Origin: Heteronotia binoei
Lineage: Eukaryota
Assembly (NCBI RefSeq): GCF_032191835.1
Contig: NC_083225.1
Span: 148,924,001 to 148,988,000 of the forward strand
Direction: 5' to 3'
Length of the DNA stretch: 64,000 nt
The position numbers and the translations under genes are program-made. The notes beneath the pieces were generated by a model. It saw only the letters and a program-made list of their open reading frames with translations, made no database searches and was not told the DNA's origin. Positions 1,359 through 56,330 of this stretch are shown one piece after another; position 1 is the stretch's first letter, and every line of letters begins with the position of its first letter.

Positions 1359-2945
1359 TTAAAAACACCAACAATTTTATGCTCACCAATTTAAAATTTA
1401 ACTATCAAGTTTAAAAGATTAGAGCTTACTTTTTCCAACAAGCCTAATTTAGCCATCCTCAGAGCCTCCTAGGCTGAAATATTATTTTTTAAAATTTTTA
1501 TTTCTTTCAAAATGGAAGTCGTGACTTTCTACTTCCCTTTAAAAAAAATTTCCTTTAAAAGCTTCTAAAATCCAATATTGACAATAATGTTCAATAGTAT
1601 TTATCCTTTCATCACCATCTCAACTATTTCCAAAAATTATTAATGTCCCAAACACCTTAAAATTATTATTTTAATTTTGACCTCCTTGCAATGGCTGCCA
1701 ATGTTTTTTTATGGTATTGTAGTCCTAGAGTAGGCTTTTCATCTAATGCTTCCTCCTTAACTTGCCACCAAATCCCGTTTTCGCTGGTAGAGAGATCTCA
1801 CGATACTTGACGTACTTCCTGTGTTAACTGTGTATGCTGCAGGTCTGTGATGATGGTGCTCTTTTTTCAAAACCGCAAGTAGACCAAACAAGAAATTCCT
1901 TCTCACTTTTTAGCACTGTCATTTAAATTTAAAATGTCCAAATTTCACCTCTTCATCCCTTCTTCCAAGCATTCTAGATTTCCATTTCCCACCTTTTGAA
2001 TTTATTCTGTTTAACTTTAAATAGTCCTGGAATGAAATATAGTAATCTGTACCTTCTCTGCAAATTATCCAGAGCCACACCGGTCTTGTGTAGCTTTAGA
2101 TGTTTAGTAATGTCCAAGAAGGTTAGAATTCTGTCGAGCTTATGTCAAATAAATGACTCTGGAAACTTCTGCAGATGATGAAAATGCAACTCTTCTTCGG
2201 AGACCCCTCAAAGGAGCCTCCCCCCCCCCTTCCCCCGGGACTCCCTTTCAGCCAAGGTAAATCTCCTCAATGTTTTCTGTGCATATCTTGGACTAATCTC
2301 TGACTGAGAAAAGTAGGCAGTAGGCATTAATTTGCCCGAACAGTGGTTCCAGCCTGCTCCCTTTATGAGAAGCAGCTCAGCTCGGCATTTTCCTACCCCG
2401 GAAGTTCCAATTCAACCCTCAATGTTAAGCTGTTGACTTCAATGGACTGTGAAGGGTGTAACCCACTTAGGATTCCTGGTGACTCCTGGAAAATAATAAA
2501 GGTGAGAACAACCTTCATAGGTGGATATGGCCAGCATATATAATATATTGCTATTATTATTGCAGCTATGATTACAGCATCTCAAAAGGCAGGCCTCTAT
2601 AGTATATTATATATTTAAAAAGAATAAGCTCTGTCTGCAGTCTTACAATTGATGTACCAGTATAGATTGCATCTTACAGCCGGGGGAGTTTTAAATTTCT
2701 CACTGCTGTTTTCCTTCCTTTTAAATGCATGTTAATTATGCTGACCTTTGGGGTAATTTGATTCTGACAAGCACCATGGCAGCTGAGCACCAGGCTGTCA
2801 TTTTGATAAGCACCAGGAGACTGAACATTATTACAGTCTCAAAATCAAAGTAAGGGTTTGGGTTTAAAGCTGCTTCAGCAGGTATCAAAATGACAGGTGA
2901 CCCTCCTTCTATTCCCTACACATCTCTCCCCATCACTGGTCCAGA

Positions 2946-3712
2946 GGCTAGTCTGGTGTAGTGGTTAAGTGCACAGACTCTTATCTGCGAGAACCAGATT
3001 TGATTCTTCACTCCTCCACTTGCAGCTGCTGGAATGGCCTTGGGTCAGCCATAGCTCTGGCAGAGGTTGTCCTTGAAAGGGCAGCTGCTGTAAGAGCTCT
3101 CTCAGCCCCACCTACCTCACAGGATGTCTGTTGGGGGGGAGGTAAAGGAGATTGAGACCATTCTGAGACTCTGAGACTGATTACAGACAAGCACTTTGGG
3201 CCGACTCAGAGATGCCTCTGAAGTCGTCCCAAAATCCCTCAGCACACAAACATCTGCTGGGCGTCCTCCGCACTCACCCCATCCTTCTGGCCACTCCACC
3301 CAGCTCAAAAAGCTAGTGAAAGTGGTAGCAAATATTTGAGCTGTCAGTCAGTTGCTGGATTGCAGTCTGAACAGGGAAGGGTGCACAGGAGGTGACTTGG
3401 CGGTCTGGAGCTGCCAAGTCACTCCAGGCTGTTCCTTTTTTAAAAAATTGCAACCAATCAGAGCGCTGGTGCTCCCCTGAGAAAATAAATGAATCCAGCT
3501 TCCAGGTTGCCTTCCCGTGCAGTGGCGCCCAGTCACCTCATGGACGGGATGCTGGTGGCATGCGGGTGAGCATGGGGAAGCTCCAAGATGGCTCTTTTTG
3601 TGCCACCCCACTTCGGGATGCCTCACAGCTGCCCAAGAATGCCCGTCTGTTCTCAACCTGAGATTCAGAGTATAGGGTGGGATACAAATCCAATCTCCTC
3701 CTCCTCTTTCTA
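2946..3712 (+). mobile_element. Squam3-like tRNA-derived SINE interrupted by a MITE at 3175-3658
   Basis: Head GGTGTAGTGGTTAAG...TTTGATTC (pol III A/B boxes); body shared with 4 other copies; 3' end CTGAGATTCAGAG...AATCCAAT(CTC)n resumes after the MITE. Confidence 0.85.
3175..3658. mobile_element. PIF/Harbinger-like MITE
   Basis: Degenerate TIR GACTGATTACAGAC / GTCTGTTCTCAACC; 3-bp TSD TGA at 3172-3174 and 3659-3661; splits a SINE. Confidence 0.6.
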
Positions 3713-15405: not shown

Positions 15406-15616
15406 NNNNNNNNNNNNNNNNNNNNNNNNNNNNNNNNNNNNNNNNNNNNNNNNNNNNNNNNNNNNNNNNNNNNNNNNNNNNNNNNNNNNNNNNNNNNNNN
15501 NNNNNNNNNNNNNNNNNNNNNNNNNNNNNNNNNNNNNNNNNNNNNNNNNNNNNNNNNNNNNNNNNNNNNNNNNNNNNNNNNNNNNNNNNNNNNNNNNNNN
15601 NNNNNNNNNNNNNNNN
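15406..15616. other. Assembly gap (N run)
   Basis: Ns in sequence. Confidence 1.
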
Positions 15617-16521
15617 TTGGACCAGATATATATGAATGCAAATCCCTAACTGGCAGGACAACACACACACTTTCTAGCTTCAGTACAAGCAAATGTATGC
15701 CCTCAGGTTTCCACTAGTACAAAATAATTGGTTGCTGTGAAGTGTATGATGGTGTTGTAAATGCACTGATGTTGTAAATACTGTTACCTCTCCAAAAAGT
15801 ACTGTAGCCTTTTCAGTAACTGGAAAGGGGAAGAACCAGAATAACATAGATTAAACTAATAAAATATATGCATTTTTAAAACCAAGTTCATTTTACAATG
15901 GTGCCATTACTACAAGAATCCCACCCTAAAAAAGTAAGAGATGTTGGTATCTTAATTTAAGGCTGGCTGTGTGACTAAAGTAATTAAAGAAACCCATATG
16001 TAATGTCAGGTCTTCCACCCACTCAAACCTTTAGTCAAATCAAAACAAAAAAAAATTTACATCCTTGAAAGACAGCAGCTATGGAAAAACATAGGCCTCT
16101 GTAAAGCCTGTTCTTCAGTACTGCCAAATGGATTTCTGATTAACACTTCCATCAATTTGGCAACATGATTAAAACACTACCAATTTAAAGTTGGTTTGAA
16201 ATGTAAACTGAAATTGGAATCTCATTCTTTCCTTCCAAGAGCTGTTTGTCACGCAGTGGAGACAGAGGAAATGTGACATGTCCCTTATGCCAAGTCTGAT
16301 CTCATAACATATCACTTCCTAGGAATCTATGGTGTCAAAAATGTGACACCACAAGGAGGCCCTTAAGTCAAAACAGATCAGAGGATGGCAATGCTTGCAT
16401 GCATTTCTCTGCTGAAGAGAAACTCGTTGAATCAGAGACCCTACACAGGATGGTGATGGCTAAAATATAAGAGTTGGGGAGGGGGGACAAGGAACCACTA
16501 ACAGTTAAGAAATGTAGAATA

Positions 16522-16600
16522 AAGTTGGAGCCCAGTAGCACCTTTAAGACCAACAAAGTTTTATTCAAGGTATGAGCTTTAAAAAATGAAACTTTGTTCT
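16522..16600. mobile_element. Penelope-like element remnant (target of the hAT insertion; continues at ~17785-17812)
   Basis: CCAGTAGCACCTTTAAGACCAACAAAGTTTTATT...ATGAGCTTT and AAACTTTGTTCT...TCAGACCAACACAGCTGCCCACCTG resemble reptile PLE terminal repeats. Confidence 0.5.
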
Positions 16601-16604
16601 AGTG

Positions 16605-17776
16605 CAGGGGTCCTCAACCTACGGCCCGCGGGACAGATGCGGCCCGCTGAGGACGTTTATGCGGCCCGCCAGGTCCCTCCCCTGGATTTGGCAGCGCCTC
16701 CCTCCTGCTCTGGCAAGTCCCAGGAACTTGAATCAAACTTTTATTTTTAACCTTGCGGATGCTCATTCCTTACCCCTCTGGGGAGCCGCGAGAGCTGGGC
16801 ACGAAACTGCGCGGGGAGAGAGGCGGCGGCAGCAGCAGGCGAGGTGAGCGGAGGGGCTCGCACGAGGCAGGAGCCGTTGGGGCGAGGAGGAGGGTGAGGG
16901 AGGCGGGCAGGGCATGCGCTGACGGGCGAAGTGAAGTTGCAGATGCCGAGGGAAGGAGAGAGGGAGGAAGGAAGCTGCCGCACGTGCCCCTGTATTGTTT
17001 CGGACCCGCAGCGTTAGGTGGCGGTCGGCGCAAGCGGAGCAGTCCAAGGTCAGAGGCTCCAGAGAGAGAGACGCGAGCAGGCGCGTCCGCACTGACCTGG
17101 AAAGGGGGAGGGGTTCTGCCTCGGCTCTCTTTCCCTCACTTTGGGAGAAGTTGTGCGGAGTCTGGGGCTGGGGGTGCGCAGGGAGGCAAGCGTCTCGGGC
17201 GCACACCTGGGCGAAGTGGGAGGGGGGCGTGCTCAGGCACTGCCCCCTTCGGAGCACGAGTGGCGCCACATGGAAGGGCCACTGAGGAAGCTCTGCGGGG
17301 TGGGGGGATATAGTTGTGTGTGGTGAAGAGTTGTTGAGAAAACAGGCATGCAGACAGGGATACCTCTATTGTGGCTGCCCCCAGCCTGGCTGGAAGCACG
17401 CACAGGTGTAGGAGAACAACACCTGGGGGGGAAAAAACCCTTGGCCTGTGTTCCAGACTTTTGGTGGCATCGGCGGTGCCCATCCGTCAAAGTAAGCGGC
17501 GTGCCTGGAGCTCGCCTCCCCCTCCCCCAGCCCTTGGCTGACAGACAGTGACTTCTCCAAAGTGACTCCCATTGAAATACTGGCAAGTTTGTTGATTTAA
17601 CTTTACTTCATTTTAAATATTGTATTTGTTCCCGTTTTGTTTCTTCACTTCAAAATAAGATATACGCAGCATGCATAGGAATTTGTTCATAGTTTTTGTT
17701 TTTACTATAGTCCGGCCCTCTAACAGTCTGAGGGACAGTGAACTGGCCCCCTATTTAAAAAGGTTGAGGACCCCTG
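16605..17776. mobile_element. Non-autonomous hAT (Charlie/OC1-like) element with ~0.9 kb GC/CpG-rich cargo
   Basis: Perfect 16-bp TIR CAGGGGTCCTCAACCT; perfect 8-bp TSD TTCTAGTG (16597-16604, 17777-17784); no transposase ORF. Confidence 0.92.
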
Positions 17777-17942
17777 TTCTAGTGCGTCAGACCAACACAG
17801 CTGCCCACCTGCTTTAAGGGATGTGTTGCCTTACAAAGGTTTCATTTTTAAGGGATATCAGTGAGCCAGTGAAAATATAGCAGACTATGTTGTAGAGGTC
17901 TATTACCTTGCTGAATGCAGGGCCAAGGCCAAGCAATGGCCT

Positions 17943-17978
17943 TGAAGGAGAGCCCCTGAATAATTAATTAATACCCCC

Positions 17979-18020
<42 letters not shown>

Positions 18021-18429
18021 TGCTATATTGAATAAGAGCATGTTTTGCCTTCAAACTAAAGTGTCTGTTACAATGCTGCCATTAGAAATTGACTACCGTC
18101 CAGTGGCTGGGAGTTGCAGCTGGAAAGATTAGATAAGAGAGCAGCCTCCTACAGAAAACTTGCTGTGGATAGATAGTGCGGAGGAATCGTGTCATGGAAA
18201 TTTACTGAGGAGAGGTCCGTGAGGCATGATCTTTGAAATCAGATAAGTTAAGCAAGCAGCTTACTCGCTTGCTTGCTTGCTTGCTTACTAGAAAAACTAT
18301 ATGCACTTAGGGAAAGGCATCTCAGTCATTTGGGGGCCCATGCCTGACTGAGTCCTATCTTTTGGTGCCAAAAGTAAACCTCGCTTCATACCAGTAAGTC
18401 TGTGCAGACCTCGTTATTTCTCTGCTTCA
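17943..18429 (+). repeat. ERV 5' LTR
   Basis: TGAAGG...GCTTCA; aligns to 29681-30206; AGTAAA polyA-like signal at ~18373; internal (AAT)n and (GCTT)n. Confidence 0.9.
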
Positions 18430-18432
18430 TTT

Positions 18433-18453
18433 TGGTGCGTTGGCCAATGGGAA
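18433..18453 (+). promoter_or_regulatory. Primer-binding site, tRNA-Gly type
   Basis: TGGTGCGTTGGCC-aat-GGGAA versus TGGTGCGTTGGCCGGGAA (complement of the tRNA-Gly(UCC) 3' end), 3 nt after the LTR CA. Confidence 0.8.
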
Positions 18454-19133
18454 AATAATGGGGTAGGACATTTCCTTCCCCTTGAGGTGGCTGCATAAGT
18501 GTCCGCCTTCCACCCTCATGACGGGAAGATCGAACTAGGCACCACGTGGTCACATTTTTTATCGCATCCAGCTCTCTTCACTCCAGTGGGGGAAGGTGTC
18601 CGATTCGCCAACCAAAATCCCACGCCTGGTTGAACCGATGTATCCAGGGAATCAGAAGATCTTCAGGATTGTGCGTATGAACTGTCTGGGAATTCTGATT
18701 ACTTCTCCTTAGGAGAGATGAAGGGTCTGATCACCCCTTAAGCTCTGTCTATTAGGCTCCGCTTTGGAGCTGAAGCACAGAAGCTATGATCTGGGAGGAT
18801 TTCTGTGGGGTGTGTGCGTGTATGAATGAGAGGAAGCGAAGCCTCTAAGTAAGAGGGACTTTCATTGTGCAGTTCCCAGTAGGGCGACCTCACTGGGTCA
18901 TGAGAGAGAGGAAGTGAAAACCCCCAGGGCTCCCTGGCTATCCAGACCCTTACTGGAGGCTGCTGTTTCTGTTTTTCCTAGAAGTATCTTGTCTAAACAT
19001 CTGGTGCCATGGGTGGAAATCAGTCAAAAACCCCACTAGAGTACATGTGTAAAAACTTCAAGGAACATTTCTGTGATGATTATGGAGTGAAATTGACTCC
19101 CAGAACTCTGAAAGCATTATGTCAGAAAGATTG

Positions 19134-19809
19134 AAAATGTCAAGACAGTGTGCGTTTGCAATAAAAAAGGCCAACGCCATGCTGGGAATTATTAGGAAGG
19201 GAATTGAAAACAAATCAGCCAGTATCATAATGCCCCTGTATAAATCGATGGTGCGGTCTCATTTGGAGTACTGTGTGCAGTTCTGGTCGCCACACCTCAA
19301 AAAGGATATAGCATTTGAGAAAGTCCAGAAAAGGGCAACTAGAATGATTAAAGGGCTGGAGCACTTTCCCTATGAAGAAAGGTTGAAACGCTTGGGACTC
19401 TTTAACTTGGAGAAACGTCGACTGCGGGGTGACATGATAGAGGTTTACAAGATAATGCATGGGATGGAGAAAGTAGAGAAAGAAGTACTTTTCTCCCTTT
19501 CTCACAATACAAGAACTCGTGGGCATTCGATGAAATTGCTGAGCAGGCAGGTTAAAACGGATAAAAGGAAGTACTTCTTCACCCAAAGGGTGATTAACAT
19601 GTGGAATTCACTGCCACAGGAGGTGGTGGCGGCCACAAGTATAGCCACCTTCAAGAGGGGTTTAGATAAAAATATGGAGCACAGGTCCATCAGTGGCTAT
19701 TAGCCACAGTGTGTGTGTATATATAAAAATTTTTGCCACTGTGTGACACAGAGTGTTAGACTGGATGGGCCGTTGGCCTGATCCAACATGGCTTCTCTTA
19801 TGTTCTTAT
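19134..19809 (+). mobile_element. CR1 LINE 3' end inserted into gag MA
   Basis: ORF 19119-19703 is the CR1 ORF2 C-terminus (LYKSMVRSHLEYCVQFWSP...KYFFTQRVINMWNSLP); tail TTCTCTTATGTTCTTAT. Confidence 0.92.
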
Positions 19810-20447
19810 CGGGTGCCCTTTCATGTAGAATGGCCGCCCGAGGGTACCTTTGACCAAGGCTTGGTTCACAAAGTTTACAAGAGTATAGCACAGTCCCCAA
19901 GTCATGCAAGTCAGTTCCGCTACATTGACAGTTGGAAAGCAATGGTGCAGAAGTCTTACTGGTGGCCAGAAAAGTTGCAGAGGATGAAGGAAAAATGGGC
20001 TCAGAGGGCTGCTTTATGGCTTTGTATCAGGACATGTTAAAAAAAACAATGACCCCTCCAAAGAAGGAAAAGCCCCCAGTGTTAGATGCAGACCCAGAAG
20101 ACTTCTTGGCTAGTCCCCCCCATATGCTCCAGTGTATCCACCTCTCCTGATGCCACCAGCTGAAGGAGGTGCCAGGGCAGCGGAAGGCAAGGCTGAAGGT
20201 GAGAGCCAAGCGCAGCTAGTTAAAAGTGCTCCAGAAACCTTTGATGAGGAGAACCAGGAAGTAGGGACGAGTGAGGAAGCCGGGGCTGTAAAAGGACGAG
20301 CAAGATCTCTGCAAACTTTAAATCCAATCCAGTAGCTGTTTACTGAACAATCGTTCCATGCAACACCCCACCCCCCCCGTGTCTAATAGTCAGAGGTTAG
20401 CTGCACGTTTCAGTTCGCCCCTAGGATTTTCCTCTAACACTGAACTC

Positions 20448-21043
20448 TGTCACGGGCTGGGGCCAGGTCAGGTGAAGTCCAGGGGCAGTCCAAGGTCTGT
20501 AGCTGGGTAGCAAGGAGGGTCCAAAGCGCCAAAACCGAATCACAGTCCAGGTATCGTAGGTCAGAGGTTCAGAAGCCGAAGTCAGGGGCTCCAGAAGTCA
20601 ATGCCAGAGTCAGGGGGTCCAGAAGCTGAAGTCAGAAGCCGAAGTGGATGCTAGAACGTCAGGTAAGTGACTAGTTGCTTCCACAAAGCCTTCTCTCAAA
20701 GCCCACAGCTATATAGGCCTCTGCTGTCTGTTGCCCATTTGGGCTAATTGCTGACTCAGAGGGCAGCCAGGATCCTGCTGAGACTCAAGCACCCTCACTC
20801 CTAGAAGGGCCAGAATCCTTTCAAAACTCAGGGCTCAGGGAGCGTCTTGTTCATGAGCATGCCGCCCTCCTCCGATCCCTGAGGTCCTGACGAAGGCGGT
20901 CACGCACACGAGCCACCCGAGAGGGCGAGGCAGGGGGGCTTGGATCTTCTCCAGCAGGAGGCAGGGGCACTGGTGCAGGTGGCAGGGGCACAGTTTCTTC
21001 TGCAGGCTTGGCTTCTTCTGCAGGGCCCCCAGCACCCATGACA
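20448..21043 (-). mobile_element. Solo LTR (Gypsy-like) inserted into gag
   Basis: Inverted termini TGTCACGGG / CCCATGACA; perfect 5-bp TSD AACTC (20443-20447, 21044-21048); minus-strand TATA at ~20712. Confidence 0.85.
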
Positions 21044-22231
21044 AACTCTCTCTCAGTACTGAGCAAACTTCCAGCCCCTCCACGGTCTCCTTCTTGACTC
21101 TTCCAGGTTTTATATCTGGCGCAGAGGGCTCTTTGCTGGCTCCCCTCCGAGAAATCCATGTTCCACAACAGCCCGGCCTTGGCATTGAAACCCAATACAT
21201 GTACGTGCCTTTCACTTCAAGTGATCTAATAAATTGGAAGGCTCATACTGTAGCATTTTCTGACAATCCTACCCCAATAACTAATCTGCTAACCAGTATT
21301 ATGGCCACACATCAGCTCACCTATGCAGACTGTCAACAGCTTTTACTGACCCTCTTTACAACAGAGGAGAGAAGCCACATTCTGCATCATGCCCGAAAGT
21401 ATGTAGAGGGAAAAGTCCCCCCAGAAACTGCAGATAGAGAGGAGTGGATAATAGCCCATTTTCCTGCAAAAGACCCAAAATGGGATACCAATGGCCATGA
21501 GTCCAAAGAGCGTCTACCAGAATACACACAGGCAATCTTAGAAGGAATGAAAGAGGCAGGCAAGAAGCCTATTTTCAAAGTCAGTGAAGTTCTCCAGAAA
21601 GTAGATGAGAGCCCTGGAGCTTTTGCTGAGCGTTTGATGCAAGCATTCCAAATGTATAGTCCATTTGATCCAGAGGCTGCAGAAAACTTGCGCATGGTAA
21701 ATACAGCTTTCGTTGCCCAATCGTATACTGACATTCGCAAGAAGCTCCAGAAGCAAGACGGCTTTGCAGGCATGAATTTATCCCAATTGCTAGAGATTGC
21801 CCAGAAAGTTTATGCCAATCAAGATGTAGACCAGAAACGGGAGGCAGAAAGAAAAATGAAAAAGAAGGCTGATCTGTTGGCAGTAGCTCTGGCTGGGCAG
21901 ACATCAATGAGAGGCAGAGGAGCTGTCCGGGGGCAAGGAATGAATGGCAGGAATCAAAGATCTGCAATGACTAATTTAGACCCAAACCAGTGTGTGTACT
22001 GTAAAGAATTTGGGCACTGGAGAGACTCATGCCTTAATCGACCCCACCCTCCGCACACAAGAGATCCAAAGTGCCCCTAAACAGATGACAGGACTGAAGT
22101 TTAGAGACCATGGGAGCAGAGGAGCCAGAGGAAGGGGCAGAGGAAGATGTCAGGTCCAGAGTGGTAGATATCAGAGGAACGAAGAGGCGCCTGTGTAAGG
22201 TCTGGTTGGACTGGAAGGATGGGAAGACTAG

Positions 22232-25200
22232 GACAGACCGGGCACCAATGGTCCTGGCCCCGCGAAGCCCATGTTCACAGTTGATATTGGGGGTCAGGAG
22301 ATTCCATTCCTTATAGATACTGGAGCTGCACGGTTTGTGGTGCCTGTTAAGTTTGCTCCTTCAATTCACAATACATTAATATAATTGGAGCTGCAGGGCA
22401 CAAGCAATCCAGACCACTTCTAGCCAAACAAACTTGTACAATAGGAGGCCATGTAGTCCGCCACAATTTTGTCCATTTACACGACTGCTCGGTGCCACTG
22501 ATGGGAAGAGACCTGCTTTCTAAGTTGCGGGCCCAATTGACTTTTAAGTCAGAGAGCCAAATGAACTTTGAGTTGCCTTACATTACCTCAGAAGGCGAAC
22601 TACAATATCAAGGTGTATATGTTCTAGAATGCCCCCGAGAAGAAGAGTGGCAACTTTACCAACCAGCTCCTGTAATGGCCATGTCAGAAGCCTGGTTTCA
22701 ACAATTTCCAGATGTATGGGCAGAGGAAAACCCGCCTGGGTTAGCAGTAAACCATGCACCTATCAAAGTAGAGTTAATCCCAGGAGCCGTTCCAGTTCGG
22801 GAACACCAGTACCCGATTCCCAAGAAGGCAGTAGCTGGCATCCAGAAGCACCTTGACAGGCTCCTCCATTATGGGATTCTTATTGAACGCCAGTCCTCAT
22901 GGAACAGTCCCCTTTTGGCAGTCCAGAAGCCGGGCATCGATGATTACAGACCAGGACAAGATTTACGCTCTGTTAATTCTTGTACACAGACTTTGCATCC
23001 TGCCGTTTCAAACCCATATGTCTTGTTGGGACTTATGCCTGCCTCAGCCACTTATTTTTCAGTGGTAGATCTCAAGGATGCATTCTTTTGTTTAAGATTG
23101 GCACCTGAAAGTCAGCCACTATTTGCCTTCCAATGGGAAGAGAAAGAAACTGGTAGAAAGTTACAATATACATGGACCTGTTTACCCCAGAGGTTCAAAA
23201 ATTCGCCCACCCTTTTTGGCAATGCCCTCAGTAAAGACTTCAGCCGGTTCCCAACTGTGCCAGGAGTTGTGTGCCTTTAATACATTGATGATATTCTGAT
23301 AGGGGCCAAAGACTTACAGGCTTGCCAAGATGCTACTGCTGCCCTGCTAATGCTCCTAACTGAGGTTGGATATAAAGTGTCTCGGAAGAAAGCTCAGCTA
23401 TGCCAAGAGACAGTGAAATTTTTAGGCTTCCATATATTCCAGAGCAGATGGCAGCTAGGCAGGGAGCGAAAAGAGACTGTGTGTGCTATTCCTGTGCCCA
23501 CTACTAGGCGCAAGCTGAGAAAATTTTTAGGAGCAGCAGGGTTCTGCAGAATTTGGCTCCCCAATTTTGCTATTACAGCAAAGTCCTTATACGAGACCAC
23601 TAAGGGGGGAGAAAAAGCACCTTTTGAATGGACAGAGCAATGTCAAAATGCCTTTGAAAACTTAAAACGCCAGCTCATGCAGGCACCAGCTCTGGAACTA
23701 CCTGATACTGACAAGCTCTTTACTCTGTATATGCATGAGCGAGAAGGAATAGCTGCAGGCATTCTAACTCAATTGTTGGGATCCTGGCTCTGACCAGTAG
23801 CATATCTGTCTAAACAACTGGACAATGTGGCCAACCTTCGTGTATGCGTGCCATATCTGCAGTGGCAGAACTTGTGAAGGAAACCGATAAATTCACCTTT
23901 GGCAGCCAGCTTGAAGTGAGAGTGCCTCATAATGTGTAAATGCTTCTTGAGCACAAAGGGAACTATTGGTTCACTAATGCCTGCATGGTCAGATACCAAG
24001 CTCTTATGTGTGAAAATCCCCGTGTGAAAATAGTGACTGTGTCAACTCTGAACCCAGCTTCCCTGTTGCCAACTCCTTGGGAAGAATTAGAACATGACTG
24101 CCTGGAAGTTATGGAAGAGGTCTATTCTAGCCAGCCTGATCTAAAAGATACCCCATTTCCAGATCCAGATATTGATTATTTCACGGATGGGAGTAGCTTT
24201 ATCCACGATGGGAGGAGCAGAGCAGGATATGTGGTTGTTACTCTAGAAACAGTGATAGAGGCAGAAGCACTGCCGATATCAACTTCAGCACAGAAGGCAG
24301 AGTTAATTGCCCTCTTCAGAGCACTCCGGTTAGCAGAAGGACTGAAAGCCAATATTTGCACAGACTTTAAATATGCTTTCATGATGCTGCATGCCCATGG
24401 AGCCTTATACAAAGAGAGAGGCTTAATTACTGCAAGTGGCAAAGGAATTAAAAATGGGAAAGAGATTTTGGAATTGTTGGAAGCTGTCTGGGCACCCTGG
24501 CACATAGCTGTCATCCATTGCCGAGGCCATCAGAAGCCCCTAAGTCCAGTAGCAAGAGGAAATCGGAAGGCAGATTTAACAGCTAAGGGGGCAGCACTAA
24601 AGCCTTATCAGGGAAGCACAGAAATTCTGCCTGTTTTTCAAGTTTTCTTAACCGAATGGAGTCCTCAGTATTCACTAGCTGAGGCGCAGTGGGTTCAAAC
24701 TCAAGGGGGAGTAACCAAATGAAGCGATGGTTGGTACGTTCTTCCCGATGGCAGAATTTATATTCCAGAAGCTGTAGCATGGCCATTAATTCAGAATCTG
24801 CATGAGGGAACACACTATGGAAAGACTGCTCTTGAATGCTCTGTGAGTCGATGGGCATACATCAACTGTGTGAGTTCACTGACATCTCAAGCCTCTGCAC
24901 AGTGTGTTACACATGCAAAGAACAATCCAGGTCAGGCCCCATGCAACCACTTAGAAGTCAGCCCGTGGGAGCAACACCTTTGTAGATTTCACTGAGATGC
25001 CCAAAGCTGGACATTACCGTTACATGCTTGTATTTGTTTGCATGATGTATGGGTGGATTGAGGCTTACCCGACCCGCACTGAGAAGGCCAATGAAGTTGT
25101 AAAAGCTTTATTAAAAAACATCATACCTACATTTGATTTATGTGTAACTTTAGAAAGTGACAATGGGCCATCATTTATTGAGAAAACTGTACAAGGTGTA

Positions 25201-25395
25201 TCTAAGTTGCTTGGCATTACTTGAAAACTGCATGCCGCTTACCGGCCACAGAGTTCAGCAAAAGTAGAAAGGGCTAACAGATCTTTGAAGAACGCCCTGT
25301 CTAAACTTTGTCAAAAAACTACTTTACCATGGACTACAATGTTGCCAATAGCATTGTTCTGGTTGCACTGCCTGCCACACAAACGGCTTAAGCTG
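22232..25395 (+). pseudogene. pol: ERV pro-pol (PR, RT, RNase H, truncated IN), multiple stops and frameshifts
   Basis: LIDTGA (DTG at 22316-22324); DLKDAFF, LPQRFKNSP, YIDD (23281); FTDGSS, SAQKAELIAL, HCRGHQ; HEGTH..CVTC, DFTEMP, SDNGPSF, YRPQSSAKVER. Confidence 0.93.
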
Positions 25396-26782
25396 TGGCA
25401 TGGGACTTGCATTATTGGAACAATACATCCCAGCTTTTTCCTTTTGCCTTCAAATGTTGGTTCAGCTCTAAGAACCCTAGTGTTCGATGATTATATTAGA
25501 TCAAAGCGTTCTCTGGACATTGGAGGTACGCAGTGGGGAGATGAATGGCCCCCACAACAGATCATTGAATATTATGGCCCAGCCACATGGTCGCAGGATG
25601 GGACCTGGGGTTATCAAACGCCTATGTATATGCTTAATTGAGTTATTAGATTGTAAGCTGTGGTAGAAATTATAATGAATCAAACAGCAGACCCAAATGC
25701 ATGCTGCAATATATCAAAATCGCCTGGCATTGGATTATCTGTTAGCTGAGGAAGGTGGTGTCTGTGGGAAGTTTAAGTTTTCACATTGTTGTTTAAATAT
25801 TGATGATAGTGGAGAAGCTGTACAGAATATAGCATCTGAAATTCGTAAAATTGCTCATGCACCAGTGGAGACATGGAAAAATTCTGATGTATCATGGTTT
25901 GGGCAAATTATGGTAAACATATTCTCTTCTTAACGGGCATTTCTTTTGGAGGCTTAATGTTATTGCCATGTTTAATTCCTATAATGAGGTCTAGTGTTAA
26001 TAATGCCATGAAGGCACTGACTCCCTTAGGGAAAAATGTTAGCGTTATGTATATGTCTCCAGAGGAAAGGAAACAGTACTTTATTAATTTGTTTGAGGAG
26101 GCTTCCGGGCTACGTTGCCTTACTATCAGGTGGATTCGCAAGCTCTCCTGCATGCGACCCCCCTGAAGCAGGCAGGGGGAAGGGTGCCACGTATGTGACA
26201 CCCCCAAAGAGACCCTGGGAGGTCTCTTAGGCATGGGGCTTTTACAGCAGGACAGGGGCGCAACGACAGTTGTTCCTGTTCCTTCTGTGTGCCCTGAAGC
26301 TCTTCCCGTCATGTTCACTATTACAGCAGCAAGAGGTGAACGCCTGATCGTTTGCTTTTCTTTTCTTCAATAAGCTTTTGATCCCCTCTTTCTCAGGCAT
26401 GACAACTCTTCAATGCAAGTAAGTCGGCTTTCAATTACCAAGGGTAATTCAGTTCAGAGGAAGGGAAAGAGATTGATATATCTAATTTCCCTGTGATTGA
26501 GGCTGTGGAAAGCTAAGAAACAATTTGAATTAATCGGAATTTGGACACTTAAATTGACCCAGATCATAATTGAATATTTGTTAAAGAGACTATTATTTGG
26601 CTGCAATACGGTCTGAACAAAATGAGATACTTGTCAGAGGGATTTCTCCTTGTTGTCTGATTTGAAATTCATACGCTAACATCTAAAACTCCAGTTGGAG
26701 GAGACTGGGAAGGATGCGCTATCTGGGACTCTAGGCTACTTTGCAATCTGGATTAATGGACTGAGTTTGCTGACAGATAAAA

Positions 26783-27211
26783 ATGGTTTTGCTAAGCAAA
26801 ATTTCTTATAATAAAGATATTTTAAGCAGTTTGAAATCTCTGAGGCAAGATCTTGGTTTATTGGCAGACTTGGTTAAGAAGCAAATGGAAGCTTTTTTGC
26901 TGAAAGCTAGCAAAATCTCAAATCTACATGAGCAGAGTGCTAAAGAGAACCCGGTGATGTCTGTGGAATTGAAATGGAAGACTGACCTGTTGGGAAACAA
27001 TCAAAAGAAAATTAAAATGGAATCCTATGGCATAGTTAAAAAAGAAGACCGGAAATGGAGACTGATTCAAACTAGGTTGAGAGGAACAAAGGCTGTGGAA
27101 TTCTTCTCACTATCTTTGAGAAGGATGACTGCATTAAGAAATAAGAAGATGCATTTTAAACAGAAAATCATGATGTGGAAATCTTTCAGAAAGAAGATCC
27201 TTCTGAACTAG
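26783..27211 (+). CDS. Orphan 142-aa ORF inside the L1-like element; amphipathic/coiled-coil-like N-half, basic C-half
   Basis: Open frame from ATG; DILSSLKSLRQDLGLLADLVKKQMEAF heptad pattern; no recognisable domain; expression unknown. Confidence 0.4.
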   Translation: MVLLSKISYNKDILSSLKSLRQDLGLLADLVKKQMEAFLLKASKISNLHEQSAKENPVMSVELKWKTDLLGNNQKKIKMESYGIVKKEDRKWRLIQTRLRGTKAVEFFSLSLRRMTALRNKKMHFKQKIMMWKSFRKKILLN

Positions 27212-27932
27212 ACTTTTCTCAGTGGATAGCTGGACATGGACTTTGGAAGAAAATTTGATATGTGAAATTAGAAGGCTAAGTGAGATTTCTTTCTCCTTTT
27301 TTGTTTTTGGGCCATAATAGTTGTCTTGTTTAAAACAATATGGATTTAAAAGTTAAAGGACTAAAAAGTTTTTGAAAAGAATTTTATGTAAAAATAGTTA
27401 GATTAACTCTTAAGAAGGCACATAGTGTAATTTCCTGATATATTGCTGAACTTGTTTTTAATAGATAACAATATTAGTCTTTATTTTTATTATTGATATA
27501 GGTAATTCTACAAGTTAATCTATAACTGTTAAGAAGGCAGATATTGTAATTATTTTGCTAATTAGTAGATCTTCTAATATGCTTGTTTGAAGAAATTGTC
27601 TATAATAAGATAAACTATTGTGCCCTGTTTTTAATTTGTCATGGATAAAGATATTGGTCACAGACTGTGTTAAGGAGAGAGAAGGTGCATATTAGTTATA
27701 AATCAGGAGATAGATTTCTTTTTAGTAAGAAGGGTTTCCTGAAATGTTCTTATCTTGGTGGGTAGTTGGGTATGGAACTCTCAATAAGAACAGGCATGTG
27801 ATTTTTATTTTTGGTCATAAGAAGTTGTTTTTCATAGTCCAATAGGGATATAAGAGATGGACTAATTGTTAAAAAGGCAGACAGCACAGATGTTATGTAA
27901 ACTGGTAGATTTGTTTTAAATACTCCGAAAGC

Positions 27933-29120
27933 AAAGCAAGGCTGCGTTCTCGCGCCAACTCTCTTTACGATCTTCTTTAGCATGATGCTTCAAAGAGCCG
28001 CAGTAGATCTAGATGAGGACGATGGTGTCTACATCCGCTATCGCACCGATGGCAGCCTGTTCAACCTGAGGCGACTAAAGGCACACTCCAAGACAATGGA
28101 AAAACTCATCCGAGAGCTACTGTTTGCTGACGATGCTGCACTCGTCTCCCACTCGGTATCAGCTCTGCAGCATATGACGTCCTGCTTTGCAGAGGCTGCC
28201 AAGCTATTCGGCCTAGAAGTTAGTCTGAAGAAGACAGAAGTTCTCCACCAGCCTGCACCCCAGGAAGATTATCACCCTCCCTGCATCACTGTGGGTGAAT
28301 CAGTTCTGAAGACAGTCCAGCAGTTCAGCTACCTGGGGTGCATCATCTCCTCAGATGCCAAGATCGACAAGGAGATTGACAACAGGCTGGCAAAGGCAAA
28401 CCGTGCATTTGGCCGACTGCACAAAAGAGTGTGGAGCAACAAGCATCTGAAAAAAGGCACAAAGATCAATGTTTACAAAGCGGTTGTGATGACAACCCTC
28501 ATCTATGGCTCCGAATCGTGGGTTTTATACCGTCATCACCTGCGACTCCTTGAGCGCTTTCATCAGCGCTGCCTTCGCACCATCCTCAACATCCACTGGA
28601 GTGACTTTGTGACCAACACTGAAGTCCTCAAATGGGCAGAGGTTACCAGCATCGAGGCACTGCTGTTGAAGACGCAGCTGCGCTGGGCAGGGCATATTTC
28701 TAGGATGGAAAACCACCGCCTTCCCAAGATTGCCCTGTATGGCGAACTCTCCACCGGCCATCGAAATAGAGGGGCACCAAAGAAGAGGTACAAGGACTCC
28801 TTGAAGAAATCCCTTAGCACCTGTCACATCAACCATCACCAGTGGTCTGACCTAGCCTCAGATCGCAAAGCATGGAGGCACACCATCCACCAGGCTGTCT
28901 CTTCCTTTGAGAACACACGCATAGCTGGTCTTGAGGACAAAAGGAGATTGAGGAAGAATCGCACTGCTACAGGACCAACCCTAAATCAGACTTTTCCCTG
29001 CAGCCGCTGTGGCCGGACCTGCCTGTCCCACATTGGTCTTGTCAGCCACCAGCGAGCCTGCAGCAAACGTGGACTATTGCACCCTTCTTAAATCTTCGTT
29101 CGCGAAGCCAAGCCGAGAGA
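27933..29120 (+). mobile_element. RTE-clade LINE, 5'-truncated, young
   Basis: KQGCVLAPTLF, LLFADDAAL, FSYLG, C-terminal CSRCGRTCLSHIGLVSHQRAC; (GA)n tail; probable TSD GATTTGTTTT (27908-27917, 29119-29128). Confidence 0.93.
27982..29091 (+). CDS. RTE reverse transcriptase C-terminal half (uninterrupted 369 aa; 5'-truncated so non-functional)
   Basis: FADD catalytic motif; zinc-finger-like C-terminus. Confidence 0.85.
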   Translation: MMLQRAAVDLDEDDGVYIRYRTDGSLFNLRRLKAHSKTMEKLIRELLFADDAALVSHSVSALQHMTSCFAEAAKLFGLEVSLKKTEVLHQPAPQEDYHPPCITVGESVLKTVQQFSYLGCIISSDAKIDKEIDNRLAKANRAFGRLHKRVWSNKHLKKGTKINVYKAVVMTTLIYGSESWVLYRHHLRLLERFHQRCLRTILNIHWSDFVTNTEVLKWAEVTSIEALLLKTQLRWAGHISRMENHRLPKIALYGELSTGHRNRGAPKKRYKDSLKKSLSTCHINHHQWSDLASDRKAWRHTIHQAVSSFENTRIAGLEDKRRLRKNRTATGPTLNQTFPCSRCGRTCLSHIGLVSHQRACSKRGLLHPS

Positions 29121-29660
29121 TTTGTTTTTAGTATGCCTCCCAGGAGGAGCTGTTCATATTGAGATAGACAAAATACTATGTTGTATTTTTTTTTAGCTTC
29201 TTAAGGATAAAGATATAAATTTTTGTGTCTATGTTAATGAGGGTAGCATTAAGCTAACAAACTAGTCTGTGTTTTTAACATGGTTAAGCTAGTTCCATGC
29301 TGAGACTGCTCTGACTTATTTATTATATGTGTTGAAGAAGAACTGTTTAGACTTGTATTGCAAATAATAGCTTAGTAAAAATGTTTTATAATGGAAGATA
29401 AAGATGGTAAGATATATGGAGAATTCTATACTTGCAGGTAGAACGAATTGGATATTTTATTTAGAGGTAGATTTAAAATTGATATATTTGTATTTTTCTC
29501 CCCCCCCCCGCTTTTACCATTCTGTATATGCCCTCCCCCCTCCCTCTTTTTCTGTATTTATGCTTATGCTTCTTTCTTTTGTAGTTAAAACCAAAAAAAA
29601 ATTATAAAATGGTAATTTGTTTGAGGATAGTCAGTCTCCTTCAGACTAAATAAGTTTTCA

Positions 29661-29680
29661 GAAGACTGAAAGGGAGGAAA
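29661..29680 (+). promoter_or_regulatory. ERV polypurine tract
   Basis: GAAGACTGAAAGGGAGGAAA immediately 5' of the 3' LTR. Confidence 0.8.
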
Positions 29681-30206
29681 TAAAGGAGAGCTCCTGAANN
29701 NNNNNNNNNNNNNNNNNNNNNNNNNNNNNNNNNNNNNNNNNNNNNNNNNNNNNNNNNNNNNNNNNNNNNNNNNNNNNNNNNNNNNNNNNNNNNNNNNNNN
29801 NNNNNNNNNNNNNNNNNNNNNNNNNNNNTTTTGCCTTCAAACTAAAGTGTCTGTTACAATGCTGCCATTAGAAATTGGCTACCGCCCAGTGGCTGGGAGC
29901 TACAGCTGGAAAGATTAGATAAGAGAACAGCCTCCTACAGAAAACTTGCTATGGATAGATAGTGCGGAGGAATTGTGTCATGGAAATTTACTGAGGAGAG
30001 GTCTGTGAGGCCTGATCTTTGAAATCAGATAAGTTTACGCCAGCCTACTCACTTGCATGCTTACTAGAAAAACTGTATGCGCTTAGGGAAAGGCATCTCA
30101 GTCATTTTGGGGGCCCATGCCTGACTGAGTCCTACCTTTTGGTGCCAAAAGTAAACCTCGCTTCATGCCAGTAAGTCTGTGCGGACCTCGTTATTTCTCT
30201 GCTTCA
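29681..30206 (+). repeat. ERV 3' LTR (contains an N gap at 29699-29828)
   Basis: TAAAGGAGAGCTCCTGAA start matches the 5' LTR start; 29829-30206 aligns to 18043-18429 with about 14 substitutions counted by eye plus a microsatellite-region difference. Confidence 0.9.
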
Positions 30207-45346: not shown

Positions 45347-47068
45347 ACACTAAAGAGCAGCCATGGAAAAATACTGCAGAGAGAGATCCTTAGGGCATTC
45401 AGTCATCTCATCCAGTGTAATGGCCCATACAGGCTGCATCAGATTTGACCAGCAGCAGCCTGTCTACTTGGATGTACTAAACAGATGTTTAGAGGGGGGA
45501 GTCGTGGTGCACAGCAGGTCTAGAATATGGCATGATCAGCTGCCACATACCAAATGGAGCCTCACTGCACTACTGGAAAAGCTAGGGATGCTTTTTGTCA
45601 TCTCATGGGCCACTTTGTTCCCCAGAATTTTCCAGGGGACAGAAGTGTCTTTTGCCACACAAACTTACATTGTCATGGAAAGTCAGGTTCAGAAGTGAAA
45701 CTGGTATTCTCTAGAATTTGACAGCACCATCCTAAGCAAAATTATACCCTTCTAAGTCCATTGAAGACAACAGTCTTTAAAAGGTGTAACTCTGCTTAAG
45801 ATTGCAATGCATTGCATTCCAGCACAATAGGCACATCGGGGTCATTATATAAAAAATACAAGCAGAGATGCAAACAATAAAGAATGTACTGGTTCCTTGT
45901 ATAACTCCCCCCCCCCCTCCCATTCTGTTCCTTATTAGTGAAACAGTAGACAAATCTCACCTTGATTAAAGTCTGTTATGCTGTTGGTCTGATAAAACTG
46001 TCCTGGAGACTGGGTCAGGTTCATGAGCCACCAGCTGGCCAGTTCTGGCTTAGACTGTGCTGCACTGAGCCTGTGGGATTAAAGACTTTAGCCCAACAGA
46101 TAATGACCAACAGCTGCCTTATTGCTGCAGTTCTTGTGCTGATTTGCCTTTTCTGTTTGTCTCTACCTTATGAAGTGGGGTGGGTGACTGCCAGAGACAA
46201 GGTTTTCTTTGAATGACTTAAACTGTTGGCAGACCACAGTGTTTGACAAAGGGCTCAGGTTCATATACATCTCCAGTAATAATGTCTATATAATTCTACA
46301 ATTAGTCCTTAAGATGCTACCAGCACTTCTGACTTTTTTGCCTCTGAGAGTCATTCCTATCTTCCACCCCAAAGCAGTAAACGTTACATATAATACTCTT
46401 AGCAAATGCTCTTTCTGGCCTTTATGCCCCCTTTCTTGCAAGCACTTAGATCTTCTCCTCCAAAAAATCATGATAGCAAGTCTCCCCAAAAAAAATCATG
46501 ACAGCAAAAAAAATCATGATAGCTACGTACCACTGTGTGTACATGTATGTGTGTGTGTGTTCGTGTGTATGTACAGTGCACATCTTGGATGTCATGGAAA
46601 GGAGCAAGGACCACTGAAATGGTCTTATCCAAGGCTCCCAAAAGTTGAGCATCAAACTTTTACTCCATTCACTGTAATTCAATGTAACAAAGAAGGCAGG
46701 GCTGCTTCACAACATGGCTTAGCAGCAGTGGTATTTATGATGGATAATACAGTTTCCTATCATGTCTCAGCATCCCCTGGTTTTGACATGTGTCCAATCA
46801 CTCTGAAGACTTTTACTCACAACAAATCCTCCTGACAAATGACACACTTGAAGAGCAGAATGAAGTCCAAGGAAAAGTGAAAGTCACCCTTTTTGCTATA
46901 TTTTCATATGGCATCACATTTTCTGTGTGATCACTTTTCTTTGTGGTCATGACAGATTAAGAAGCCTCCTTTTAAACAGATCCTGCTGGTTTGGTTTAAA
47001 AGGAATGGCACTCCAGTTCTAACAGGCCAGGTTCTATTGCACCTTGCAATGGTATAATTGTAAACCAT

Positions 47069-47354
47069 GGGCGTTTTCGCACAGACCTTAATCAGTAGCG
47101 ACGCCCCTCTTCACCGCGCAAGATCAGCGCGGATTTCGCACTAATTGCCGCGGAGCACCCGGAAGAGCCGGAAAGTCCCGCGGCTTTTGCGGCGCAAACG
47201 GAAACCGCCAAAAACCAGTTTCCATTTGCGCCGCAAAAGCCGCGGGACTTTCCGGCTCTTCCGGGTGCTCCGCGGCAATTAGTGCGAAATCCGCGCCGAT
47301 CCTGCGCGGTGAAGAGGGTCATCGCTACTGATTAAGGTCTGTGCAAAAATGCCC
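47069..47354. mobile_element. Fold-back (palindromic) PIF/Harbinger-like MITE
   Basis: ~135-bp arms; TIR GGGCGTTTTCGCAC / GTGCAAAAATGCCC; 3-bp TSD CAT; CpG-rich. Confidence 0.88.
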
Positions 47355-48079
47355 CATGTAATTATAGTTGCTGTACTCAGTAGTTTCTGCAACAGATTCT
47401 GATGTAGCTGCTAAAAAGCGCTAGAGGTCTTAATTTTGTGCCATTTTTATAAATTTTAAACAACATTTGGACTTTACAAGATTGAAAACAGCTCTGAATT
47501 ATTTCTTTAATTCTTTATTGGCACCATCCACAATTCAGATTAAAACCAATTCTCTCTGGAGACTATTTTGCCTCTATTCATCAATAGCACAAGAAGTCTA
47601 ATTATGTATAGTTTTATTAAATTATAATATAAAAGCAAGCCTGCATTGATCATTACTGAGTCCCCTGTGGTAAGCATCATCTTCTAGTAGTTAGGCATGG
47701 AACCGTTTTAGAAACCAAGATAATTCCCTACAATCATAGATGATAACCTGCCACAAATAGCTAAAATTAACACATATGAGTAGACCGATTAGTAAGTTCT
47801 CATGAAAAGACAAATGTCTATAAATTCATGGCCAAAAGTGGACAGAAACACTACAAATGGCAAAGCTGATAGGTGCAGATTAATAAACAATGACAACCTG
47901 TGTTTTACTTAACTTTTAAAAGGAATCTATTAAATCTTACATTCTGATAGACAAATGTGGCTTTAAATCCACAGACTGCAACCACGCTGACATAAAACAG
48001 ATACTTTTGCAAACTTGTGGGATCCTCAGGCACATGGAGAAATGCATTCAGATCATAACCATAAATAAATGGTTGCTCG

Positions 48080-53730: not shown

Positions 53731-54770
53731 AGAAGAACCACTGATTTCAGGAGGGATGTTGAAAGATCTGAGTTGGGTTGAGGTGACAAGACAGGAGGTC
53801 CTATGTCTCATGAACAAATTAAAAACTGACAAATCACCAGGCCCAAATGGCTTACATCTAAGAGTTCTGAAAGAACTCAAGTGTGAACTTGTGGATCTCC
53901 TGACAAGAATGTGATCTGTCATTAAAATCTTCCTCCATTCCTGAGGACTGGAAGATAGCTAATGTAACCCCCATTTTAAAAAAAATTTCCAGAGATCTGG
54001 GAAAATACAGGCCAGTCAATCTAACATTGATTCCAGGTAAGTTGGTGGAATCCATTATTTAAGATAGCATCAGTAGGCACATTGATGAACAAAAGCCATT
54101 AAGGAAGAATCAACATGGATTCGGTAAGGAAAGGTCTTGTCTCACTAACCTGTTAGAGTTCTTTGAAGGGGTAAACAAACATGAGGACAGCATGTGGACC
54201 CAATAGGTGTTGTTTACCTAGAGTTCCAGAAAGTTTTTGATAAAGCTCCTCATCAAAGGGTCCTAAGTAAACTCAGTAGTCATGGAATAAGAGGACAAGT
54301 CCTCTCATGGATTGAAACCTGGTTAATTAACAGGAAACTGAGAGTGAGTATAAATGTTCACAGTGAATAGTGGTAATACATGGGTTACCACAGGGCTCAG
54401 TACTGGGTCTGGTGCTTTTTAATTTGTTAATTAATGATTTGGAGTTTGGAGGAAGCAGTTAAGTGGCTACATTTATGGATGGCACTAGGTTGTTCAGGGT
54501 GGTAAGAACAGAGATGACTGTGAGGAGCTCCAGAGGGATCTGTCAAGGCTGGCTGAGTGAGTGTCAATGTGGCAAATGAGGTTCAACATGGACAAGTAAA
54601 AAGTAATGCACATTGGAGCAAAAAATCCTAACTATAAATACATGTCAATGAGGTCCAAAATGGTGGAGACTGATAAGCAGAGAGATCTTGGAATTGTGGT
54701 AGGTTACTCACTGAAAATGTTGATTCAGTGTGCAACAGCAATGAAAAAGGCAAATGTTATGCTGAGAATT
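53731..54770 (+). mobile_element. Older CR1 fragment, RT region
   Basis: EPLISGGMLKDL...KSPGPNGLHLRVLKEL; degenerate PQGSVLG region; ends at KKANVMLRI; many stops. Confidence 0.85.
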
Positions 54771-55760
54771 AAGAACATAAGAGAAGCCATGTTGGATCAG
54801 GCCAATGGCCCATCCAGTCCAACACTCTGTGTCACACAGTGGCCAAAAAAATTATATATATAATAATGCCCACGAGCTCTTGTATTGTGAGAAAGGGAGA
54901 AAAGTACTTCTTTCTCTACTTTCTCCATCCCATGCATTATCTTGTAAACCTCTATCATGTCACCCCGCAGTTGACGTTTCTCCAAGCTAAAGAGCCCCAA
55001 GCGTTTTAACCTTTCTTCATAGGGAAAGTGTTCCAACCCCTTAATCATTCTAGTTGCCCTTTTCTGGACTTTTTCCAATGCTATGATATCCTTTTTGAGG
55101 TGCGGTGACCAGAATTGCACACAGTATTCCAAATGAGACCGCACCATCGATTTATACAGGGGCATTATGATACTGACTAATTTGTTTTCAATTCCCTGGT
55201 CTTTCAACACCCCTTCTAAAATTAGTGGTTCTGGAGCGGGCAAACACTTCTCATCTTCCAAAGTGAAGACAGAGGCAAAAAATGCATTCAGCTTCTCAGC
55301 CATTTCCCTATCCTCCTTCAGTAATCCTTTGACCCCTTGGTCATCCAAGGGCCCCACTGCCTCCCTGGCTGGTTTCCTGCTTCTAATATATTTGAAGACA
55401 TTTTTATTGTTGGTCTTTATGTTTTTTACAATATGCTCCTCATAGTCCCTTTTAGCCTGCCTGATCACAGTCTTGCATTTGATTTGCCATAACCTGTGTT
55501 CCCTTTTATTGATCTCACTTGGACTAGCTTTCCACCGCTTAAAGGAGTCCTTCTTACCTTTTACAGCTTCCATTAATTTGTTTGTTAACCATGCAGGCCT
55601 TTTCTTATACCTGTTTGTGCCTTTCCTAACTTGTGGTATATATTTTATGTGAGCTTCTAGGATTGTAGTTTTAAATAGCCTCCAAGCTTCCCCAAGAGTT
55701 TTGACTCTATTTACCTTTCCTTTCAGTTTCCTCTTCACATGCCTCCTCATCACAGAGAAT

Positions 55761-56330
55761 TTACCCCCTTTTAAAGTTAAACGTGGTCGTGCTGGTGTTT
55801 TGGGACAGCTCTCTATTTATACAAATGGTGAAATCAATAACATTATGGTCACTGCTCCCAAGCGGTGCGATCACTTTTACATCTCTCACTAAGTCTTGGG
55901 CATTACTTAGGACCAAATCCAGGATCGCCCCACCCCTGGTAGGTTCTGAGACCATCTGCTCCACAGCACAGTCATTGAGAGCATCAAGAAACTCAATCTC
56001 TTTCTCTCGGCCAGAACACATATTGACCCAATCAATCTGCGGGTAGTTAAAATCACCTATTATGACACAGTTTTTATGTTTAGCCGCTATCTTTAATCCT
56101 TCCATCATATTATATTCGTCCTCTATCATTTGATTTGGTGGGCGATAACAAACTCCCATAGTTAAATTTCCTTTTGGGCCCTCTATTTCAACCCAAAGCA
56201 TTTCTAGAAGGGAATCTAATTCTCTGACCTCAGTCTTACTGGACCGTATACCCTCTCTGACATACAGAGCCACCCCACCTCTAACCCTTCCCTCCCTATC
56301 CTTCCAATATAACTTATATCCAGGAATCAC
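55761..56330 (-). pseudogene. CR1 ORF2 apurinic endonuclease
   Basis: GGVALYV, GVCYRPP, GDFNYPQIDW, LDLVLSN, SSDHNVIDF. Confidence 0.9.

Follow-up and report, generated by a model that had tools for sequence, protein, structure and literature searches.

The element at 16605-17776 is a non-autonomous hAT transposon. On their sequence its ends are assigned to OC1, a horizontally transferred hAT family, and foreign, CpG-rich DNA of 892 bp stands in place of its transposase region. This DNA was likely copied from the promoter of a host gene with the first exon and the start of an intron, and the composite likely moved here as one unit. We give this full reading an even chance. Taken by itself, a host promoter-like origin of the cargo is probable and, granted that origin, movement as a unit is about as probable. 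Coordinates are those of the window, i.e., the whole 64,000-nt stretch of DNA that was analysed. Twelve sequencing runs were listed, and four of them (X1, X2, X6, X7) were aligned on 16400-17900 at 88% likeness; X3 (share 0.16) and seven others stand outside this alignment. X6 and X7 are RNA libraries, from each of which 10.17 million reads were taken (about 6% of each run).

Element boundaries and OC1 ends

The features of the element and its target site are, from left to right:

16597-16604: left target site duplication (TSD), TTCTAGTG; the same 8-mer lies on both sides of the element
16605-16620, plus strand: left terminal inverted repeat (TIR), 16 bp; C at position 14 where the resident family has A
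16605-16674, plus strand: OC1 left arm, corresponding to OC1_Das 1-70 with 6/70 differences (by eye)
16675-17566: non-OC1 cargo, 892 bp, likely a host fragment with a promoter, a first exon and the start of an intron
16675-16793: low-CpG cargo segment, GC 0.55, CpG o/e 0.48, GC skew -0.23; minus-strand donor-like site at 16773, score 8.1
16794-16832: about 39 bp apparently common to a second, unseen sequence, from an X1 contig break, an X1 depth excess and an X7 piece of 14+25 letters
ending at 16843, plus strand: candidate noncoding first exon; donor at 16844, score 9.3
16794-17280, plus strand: CpG-island core, G-rich on this strand; 16794-17032 has GC 0.69, o/e 1.00 and skew +0.39, 17033-17280 has o/e 0.64
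17281-17566: distal, CpG-poorer cargo, o/e 0.34; its G/A/C homopolymer tract at 17425-17440 varies
17567-17776, plus strand: OC1 right arm, corresponding to OC1_Das 2362-2571 (the last 210 nt) with 5/210 differences (by eye)
17761-17776, minus strand: right TIR, bearing the change complementary to that in the left TIR
17777-17784: right TSD, TTCTAGTG, lying in a short abundant repeat split by the element

The perfect 16-bp TIRs and the 8-bp TSD reported by a sequence-only reading of this DNA were both recovered: the TIRs pair at 16/16 positions, and TTCTAGTG abuts the element at both ends, a TSD length characteristic of hATs. The element starts with CAGGG, in agreement with the YARNG start given for hAT TIRs (PMC3014272). 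Where an autonomous hAT has a transposase ORF, the last three codons alone remain, and none of the 12 element frames matched a Pfam family. The TSD fits five of the six fixed positions of NTCTAGAN, the target pattern given for hAT-HT2N2_AC; the anole hAT-HT2 families share this pattern and the TIR type (PMC3014272). The insertion splits a short abundant repeat, reads of whose family sit on 17777-17811 and on a further copy at 16515-16580. This repeat is present in two copies of opposite orientation, at 16515-16580 and at about 16583-16604 plus 17777-17811, the second of which is the one divided by the hAT.

OC1_Das, named hAT-2 in RepBase (Gallus et al., PMC4408412), has a consensus of 2,571 bp (Gilbert et al. 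2013, PMC3621081, supplementary file 1). Arms and consensus were compared by eye, with no program, and the identities are 91% (left) and 97.6% (right), at or above the roughly 90% looked for in OC1 ends. A right arm (17567-17776) 97.6% identical to the Tasmanian devil consensus is what is expected of a horizontally transferred family. Three of the six left-arm differences are CpG-type changes on the consensus side; those of the right arm are at 17584, 17665, 17671, 17721 and 17763. In translation, the right arm opens in the final three codons of the transposase frame, Ser-His-stop. The likeness to OC1 (OposCharlie1), represented by OC1_Das and, by TIR, the anole hAT-HT2 families, thus comprises 64/70 and 205/210 end letters, the 16-bp TIR and the 8-bp TSD with a TCTAG core (PMC3621081 and PMC3014272). 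Unlike OC1_Das, the element has foreign DNA in place of positions 71-2361, a change at TIR position 14 in both ends and no transposase.

The TIR change departs from the resident family. At 16618 the family letter is A in 55/55 X6 reads and 295/303 X7 reads, and at 17763 it is T in 74/74 X6 reads and 582/586 X7 reads, where the window has G. In all, 8/280 arm letters are unlike family or consensus, placing the arms about 3% from the family, and two of these are of the CpG-decay type (16671 and 17671). One further such change is an X1 variant at 16840. The OC1 element is young.

The cargo is foreign to OC1

The cargo takes the place of 2,291 of the 2,571 nt of OC1 (89%). The sequence-only reading had set its limits at 16676-17566, about 890 bp. 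The end stands, and the start moves to 16675 (892 bp), since resident reads depart behind 16674 and the comparison with OC1_Das agrees. OC1_Das has a CpG-rich 5′ noncoding region of its own, including a donor-like site, which by eye has no resemblance to the cargo. In the RNA libraries, reads of resident OC1 match the window up to 16674 and diverge thereafter (161 in X7), and they match again from 17709 on (868 in X7, 106 in X6). Their loose letters are those of OC1_Das 71-100 and about 246-275; therefore, resident OC1 keeps its canonical interior. The runs also hold an abundant short OC1 form, in which roughly the first 275 nt are joined to the last 68 nt, seen in both read directions. It is not the 192-bp form that has been published from the Tasmanian devil.

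The element is not a plain deletion derivative of OC1: the cargo is, by eye, unlike OC1_Das 71-2361, and family reads exit at 16674. The earlier description of a non-autonomous hAT with an interior foreign to the transposon is thus borne out by OC1 arms, a cargo unlike OC1_Das and resident reads that carry the OC1_Das interior. That reading had named one outcome that would count against it, namely a cargo that aligns to the 5′UTR of an autonomous hAT or another known TE and has no host-gene parent, and the cargo is not the 5′ region of the one autonomous consensus compared, OC1_Das. We found no match to the cargo elsewhere in the window.

No coding signal was detected in the cargo by Pfam for all frames or by protein searches for three of them. 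The plus-strand 184-aa frame had 0 matches among 4107 candidates, and the minus-strand 116-aa frame had 0 among 1403 longer candidates. The minus-strand 200-aa frame had two matches among 1.84 billion proteins, which we dismiss as chance: they are to very long proteins, span at most 36 residues and are mostly 29-40% identical. Over 15600-19200, Rfam gave no family above its gathering score. The sole match (E 0.17) is far below that score, lies outside the element and was rejected. Exact scans found a right-arm 23-mer 0 times in viral, metagenome and prokaryote contigs and a cargo 26-mer 0 times in metagenome contigs, collections in which vertebrate DNA is not expected.

A CpG-rich, promoter-like composition

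The earlier count of about 44 CpGs in 16741-17280, in an otherwise CpG-poor window, is exact: the segment has 44, and the o/e of the window is 0.22. Its GC content is 0.665 and its o/e 0.80, and the count is the highest of any 540-bp segment in the window, where the median is 3. These 540 bp qualify as a CpG island by the thresholds of at least 500 bp, GC of at least 55% and o/e of at least 0.65. At 16794 the GC skew flips from -0.23 to +0.39. The homopolymer tract at 17425-17440 takes four forms across the window, X1 and X2.

Donor-like sites are in excess. Scored with an approximate donor matrix, the cargo contains seven 9-mers of at least 7.5 bits (three plus, four minus), where 2000 shuffles averaged 1.44 (P printed as 0.000). 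None of the 67 other 892-bp tiles of the window reaches seven (maximum 5), and just 4/67 of these tiles have a GC content of at least 0.5. The strongest site is GAG/GTGAGC at 16844, where the sequence-only reading had placed a donor GTGAGC and where we score it at 9.3. The minus-strand polypyrimidine/CAG acceptor that it had proposed at about 17097 is ambiguous in role, as the site also reads as a strong donor, CAG/GTCAGT (8.5 bits). The NRF1-like GCATGCGC and CACGTG (16981) are present as claimed and carry little evidential weight: against 2000 dinucleotide shuffles, with six motifs tested, their P values are 0.024 and 0.117. The full NRF1 10-mer, GC box, ETS and YY1 motifs each occur 0 times in the cargo. 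Transcription-factor motifs, being near chance, were therefore rejected as evidence of a promoter.

Transcription starts and first introns typically show a skew flip, an excess of donors and G-runs, features also shared by the promoters of mobile elements. Composition, skew flip and donor density support the earlier idea of a promoter- or first-exon-like cargo, whose motif arguments are weak, and the cargo resembles a promoter, first exon and intron start. CpG retention is no mark of a functional island here, and youth also explains the CpG richness. Retention needs no protection from methylation, because the element is young and 34 CpGs persist in a palindromic repeat of 287 bp elsewhere in the window. 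This near-palindromic repeat (47070-47356) has long inverted arms, and the o/e in 47001-47500 is 1.17. It is the second CpG peak of the window and resembles a young MITE, presumably of a Harbinger-like class.

Junctions, rarity and expression

The cargo or part of it is found in 3/12 listed runs, from two studies and under a single species label. An X1 contig (16641-16823; 0 other letters, one gap) spans the left junction, and an X2 contig (17409-17738; four other letters) spans the right. Further contigs lie on 16794-17032, 17209-17521 and 17224-17437, with 0-2 other letters, and by hand arithmetic on depths an extra X2 contig begins at about 17566-17567. None of the pieces listed covers the entire element, and 17033-17208 is bare in all four aligned runs. 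We reject an assembly artefact because both arm-cargo junctions occur in independent runs.

Summed contig depth in X2 is 0-14 on the cargo vs. about 2500-3400 on the OC1 ends. In X6 and X7 the depth is about 0 on the cargo vs. up to 53 and 456 per direction on the OC1 ends; all of these are depths and give no copy number. At an identity threshold of 88%, the cargo thus does not belong to any abundant repeat that is transcribed. Cargo depth is 0 in X6, and X7 shows a single 39-nt piece (14+25 letters), beyond which we detected no expression of the cargo in either library. Nor was there a start pile-up, a splice joint, or a spliced or abundant transcript over the cargo among the 10.17 million reads of each. 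This counts against the host-promoter reading, as a highly expressed parental first exon might have yielded such a transcript. Rather than acting as a promoter at this locus, the element is most likely a passive passenger in decay.

From the depth sums, a second sequence appears to share about 39 bp with the cargo at 16794-16832, where the composition flips too. Two X1 contigs overlap by 30 letters at 16794-16823, as happens where an assembly graph branches. The X1 depth excess fits one more contig inside 16789-16839, e.g., 16794-16831 at a depth of about 10 (arithmetic), and the 14+25 letters of the X7 piece, in the same two depth bins, correspond to 16794-16832. This could reflect the start of a transcript from the parent, a junction between two donors or a variant copy.

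Neighbouring elements

An endogenous retrovirus (ERV) occupies 17943-30206. Its LTR start, inferred at 17943, is 166 bp to the right of the element, close to the 170 bp given earlier; it had to be inferred because the corresponding part of the 3′ LTR falls in an N gap. The LTRs are 92% identical over 390 columns. Gag_p30, protease, RT and RNase H were matched in separate frames. A primer-binding site at about 18432 resembles that of tRNA-Gly, and the flanking 4-mers agree at 3/4 positions. ERV and element have no sequence similarity, and proximity alone connects the cargo with the ERV. A repeat in the ERV leader/gag region (19198-19527 and 19718-19808) is 94% identical to a LINE-like sequence on the other strand at 54770-55197, and an endonuclease domain is located at 55764-56336. 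A 396-aa frame with an RT match (27901-29091), within the ERV span near the 3′ LTR, is probably a separate LINE insertion. Of the 31 long frames, 27 were scanned and showed no host protein family; two others are cargo frames, which are Pfam-negative, and short exons would escape such a scan.

Origin of the cargo and probable movement of the composite

The element is probably a Pack-hAT, i.e., a Pack-TIR of the OC1 family, and probably works like one. Pack-TIRs have both termini of at least 10 bp around a 100-5000 bp interior (Tan et al. 2021), and here arms of 70 bp and 210 bp enclose 892 bp. By the definition of the same authors, the parent is a unique copy of at least 90% identity over 80-120% of the length, with no TE flanks. 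The window holds no parent of the cargo in the 16 kb to the left or the 46 kb to the right. We propose that an OC1 copy would have broken or excised, and that gap repair would have switched to a GC-rich host template and then rejoined near the OC1 ends. The composite would have retained both TIRs, with OC1 transposase supplied in trans, and would have been cut and pasted into the short repeat at a TCTAG site.

Several observations argue for movement as a unit. The same non-family change is present in both TIRs. The element has lost 89% of OC1, whereas Pack-TIRs formed in place lose a median of 4.6%, and the window contains no parent, whereas 56.9% of Pack-TIRs have theirs within 15 kb. The unique flanks, 16400-16501 and 17828-17900, have a depth of 0 in 4/4 runs. 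At 17665 and 17671, two positions at which the window departs from OC1, the X2 contig retains the OC1 letters, and the tract at 17425-17440 occurs in four forms. Contigs about 1% divergent and lacking flank coverage hint at further copies. Alternatively, the contig variants could be alleles of this single locus or have arisen when the assembly merged it with a different OC1 copy, and low, patchy depth could by itself account for flanks without coverage, given that X2 also lacks 16706-17215 and X1 lacks 17033-17208. A further counterpoint is that the cargo was seen under one species label only.

Host promoter-like DNA could also have been copied into an OC1 element already at the site, by gap filling independent of transposition, leaving a single-copy composite that never moved. 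Most animal Pack-TIRs are single-copy, with four multicopy families among 370 (PMC8277862), and every run variant could be an allele. A 4-letter direct repeat is present at both cargo junctions (16674-16677 and 17567-17570), which speaks for such filling; it fits microhomology-guided repair under unit movement as well. We hold filling in place to be unlikely. It leaves the matched change in both TIRs unexplained, the loss of OC1 far exceeds the class median, no parent is nearby in the window, and the joint 16674-17567, expected of an empty 280-bp precursor, is absent from the 11 joints listed.

Equally unlikely, in our view, is a cargo that is the promoter or 5′ region of another low-copy mobile element, e.g., a deletion derivative of an autonomous OC1 with a swapped 5′ noncoding region. 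The promoters of transposons and LTRs likewise have CpG islands and donors, and the OC1 5′ region has its donor-like site. The cargo occupies the place of that CpG-rich region, its strongest donor shares the direction of the transposase, and the right arm begins in the last transposase codons; anole hATs, moreover, often carry other TEs as filler (PMC3014272). Against a mobile source, in X6, X7 and X2 the cargo attracts no family of reads with an identity of at least 88%, whereas neighbouring repeats draw hundreds. The start of the transposase frame is gone, resident OC1 reads have the canonical interior, and the cargo has no similarity to the ERV or other repeats of the window.

The least probable reading is that the cargo is GC-rich host DNA that does not serve as a promoter, may be a mosaic of at least two fillers and is island-like only through youth: near-chance motifs, the 34 CpGs retained in 287 bp of the young palindromic repeat and abrupt composition changes at 16794 and again near 17281 speak for it, whereas an o/e of 1.0 requires a source that escaped CpG decay, and the flip in skew and the excess of donors are what a region around a transcription start would show.

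Comparison with known systems and significance

Capture of promoter-like DNA by a transposon is a known kind of event. In animals, 370 Pack-TIRs have been reported, 208 of them hATs; 56.9% lie within 15 kb of their parent, and single-copy ones lose a median of 4.6% of the element (PMC8277862). In the frog, hAT-N8_XT took a piece of the CAPSL 5′UTR to three chromosomes (PMC8277862). Like Pack-hAT-N8_XT and the multicopy animal Pack-TIRs, the element has hAT ends around GC-rich, 5′-end-like DNA with no parent nearby (here, within the window). It differs in its 892-bp cargo, against 291 bp in the frog (median 224 bp), and parent and copy number are established there. The sole lizard genome in that survey has 0 Pack-TIRs, yet no hAT annotation either (PMC8277862). 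The anole non-autonomous hATs hobo-N and hAT-N4_AC are alike in that squamate hATs keep their ends and carry extraneous DNA; their filler is mostly old TE fragments, none described as promoter-like in the available part of PMC3014272. The bat Helitrons HelibatN3/NUBPL and HelibatN211/SRPK1 are also DNA transposons that captured a promoter, 5′UTR, first exon and intron start. They are rolling-circle elements without TIRs, present in thousands of copies and with identified parents (PMC4224331). We found no published OC1 element with promoter-like cargo in the open-licence literature.

A bolder scenario, which we consider quite improbable, is that after horizontal transfer OC1 exchanged its own promoter for a captured host CpG-island promoter, first exon and splice donor in the same position and orientation, and spread as a small TIR-variant family seeding portable promoters; this copy may then be a relic of an autonomous OC1 with a stolen promoter. 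If single-copy and silent, the element would be an ordinary repair product. If its parent is the start of a host gene and several copies exist, it would be among the few mobile vertebrate Pack-TIRs (cf. the four multicopy families among 370 cases in PMC8277862) and, within the open-licence literature searched, the first case linked to OC1 or a genome of squamate type. The youth of the element, with arms about 3% from the family, would then make it possible to ask directly if a CpG island stays unmethylated and starts transcripts after relocation.
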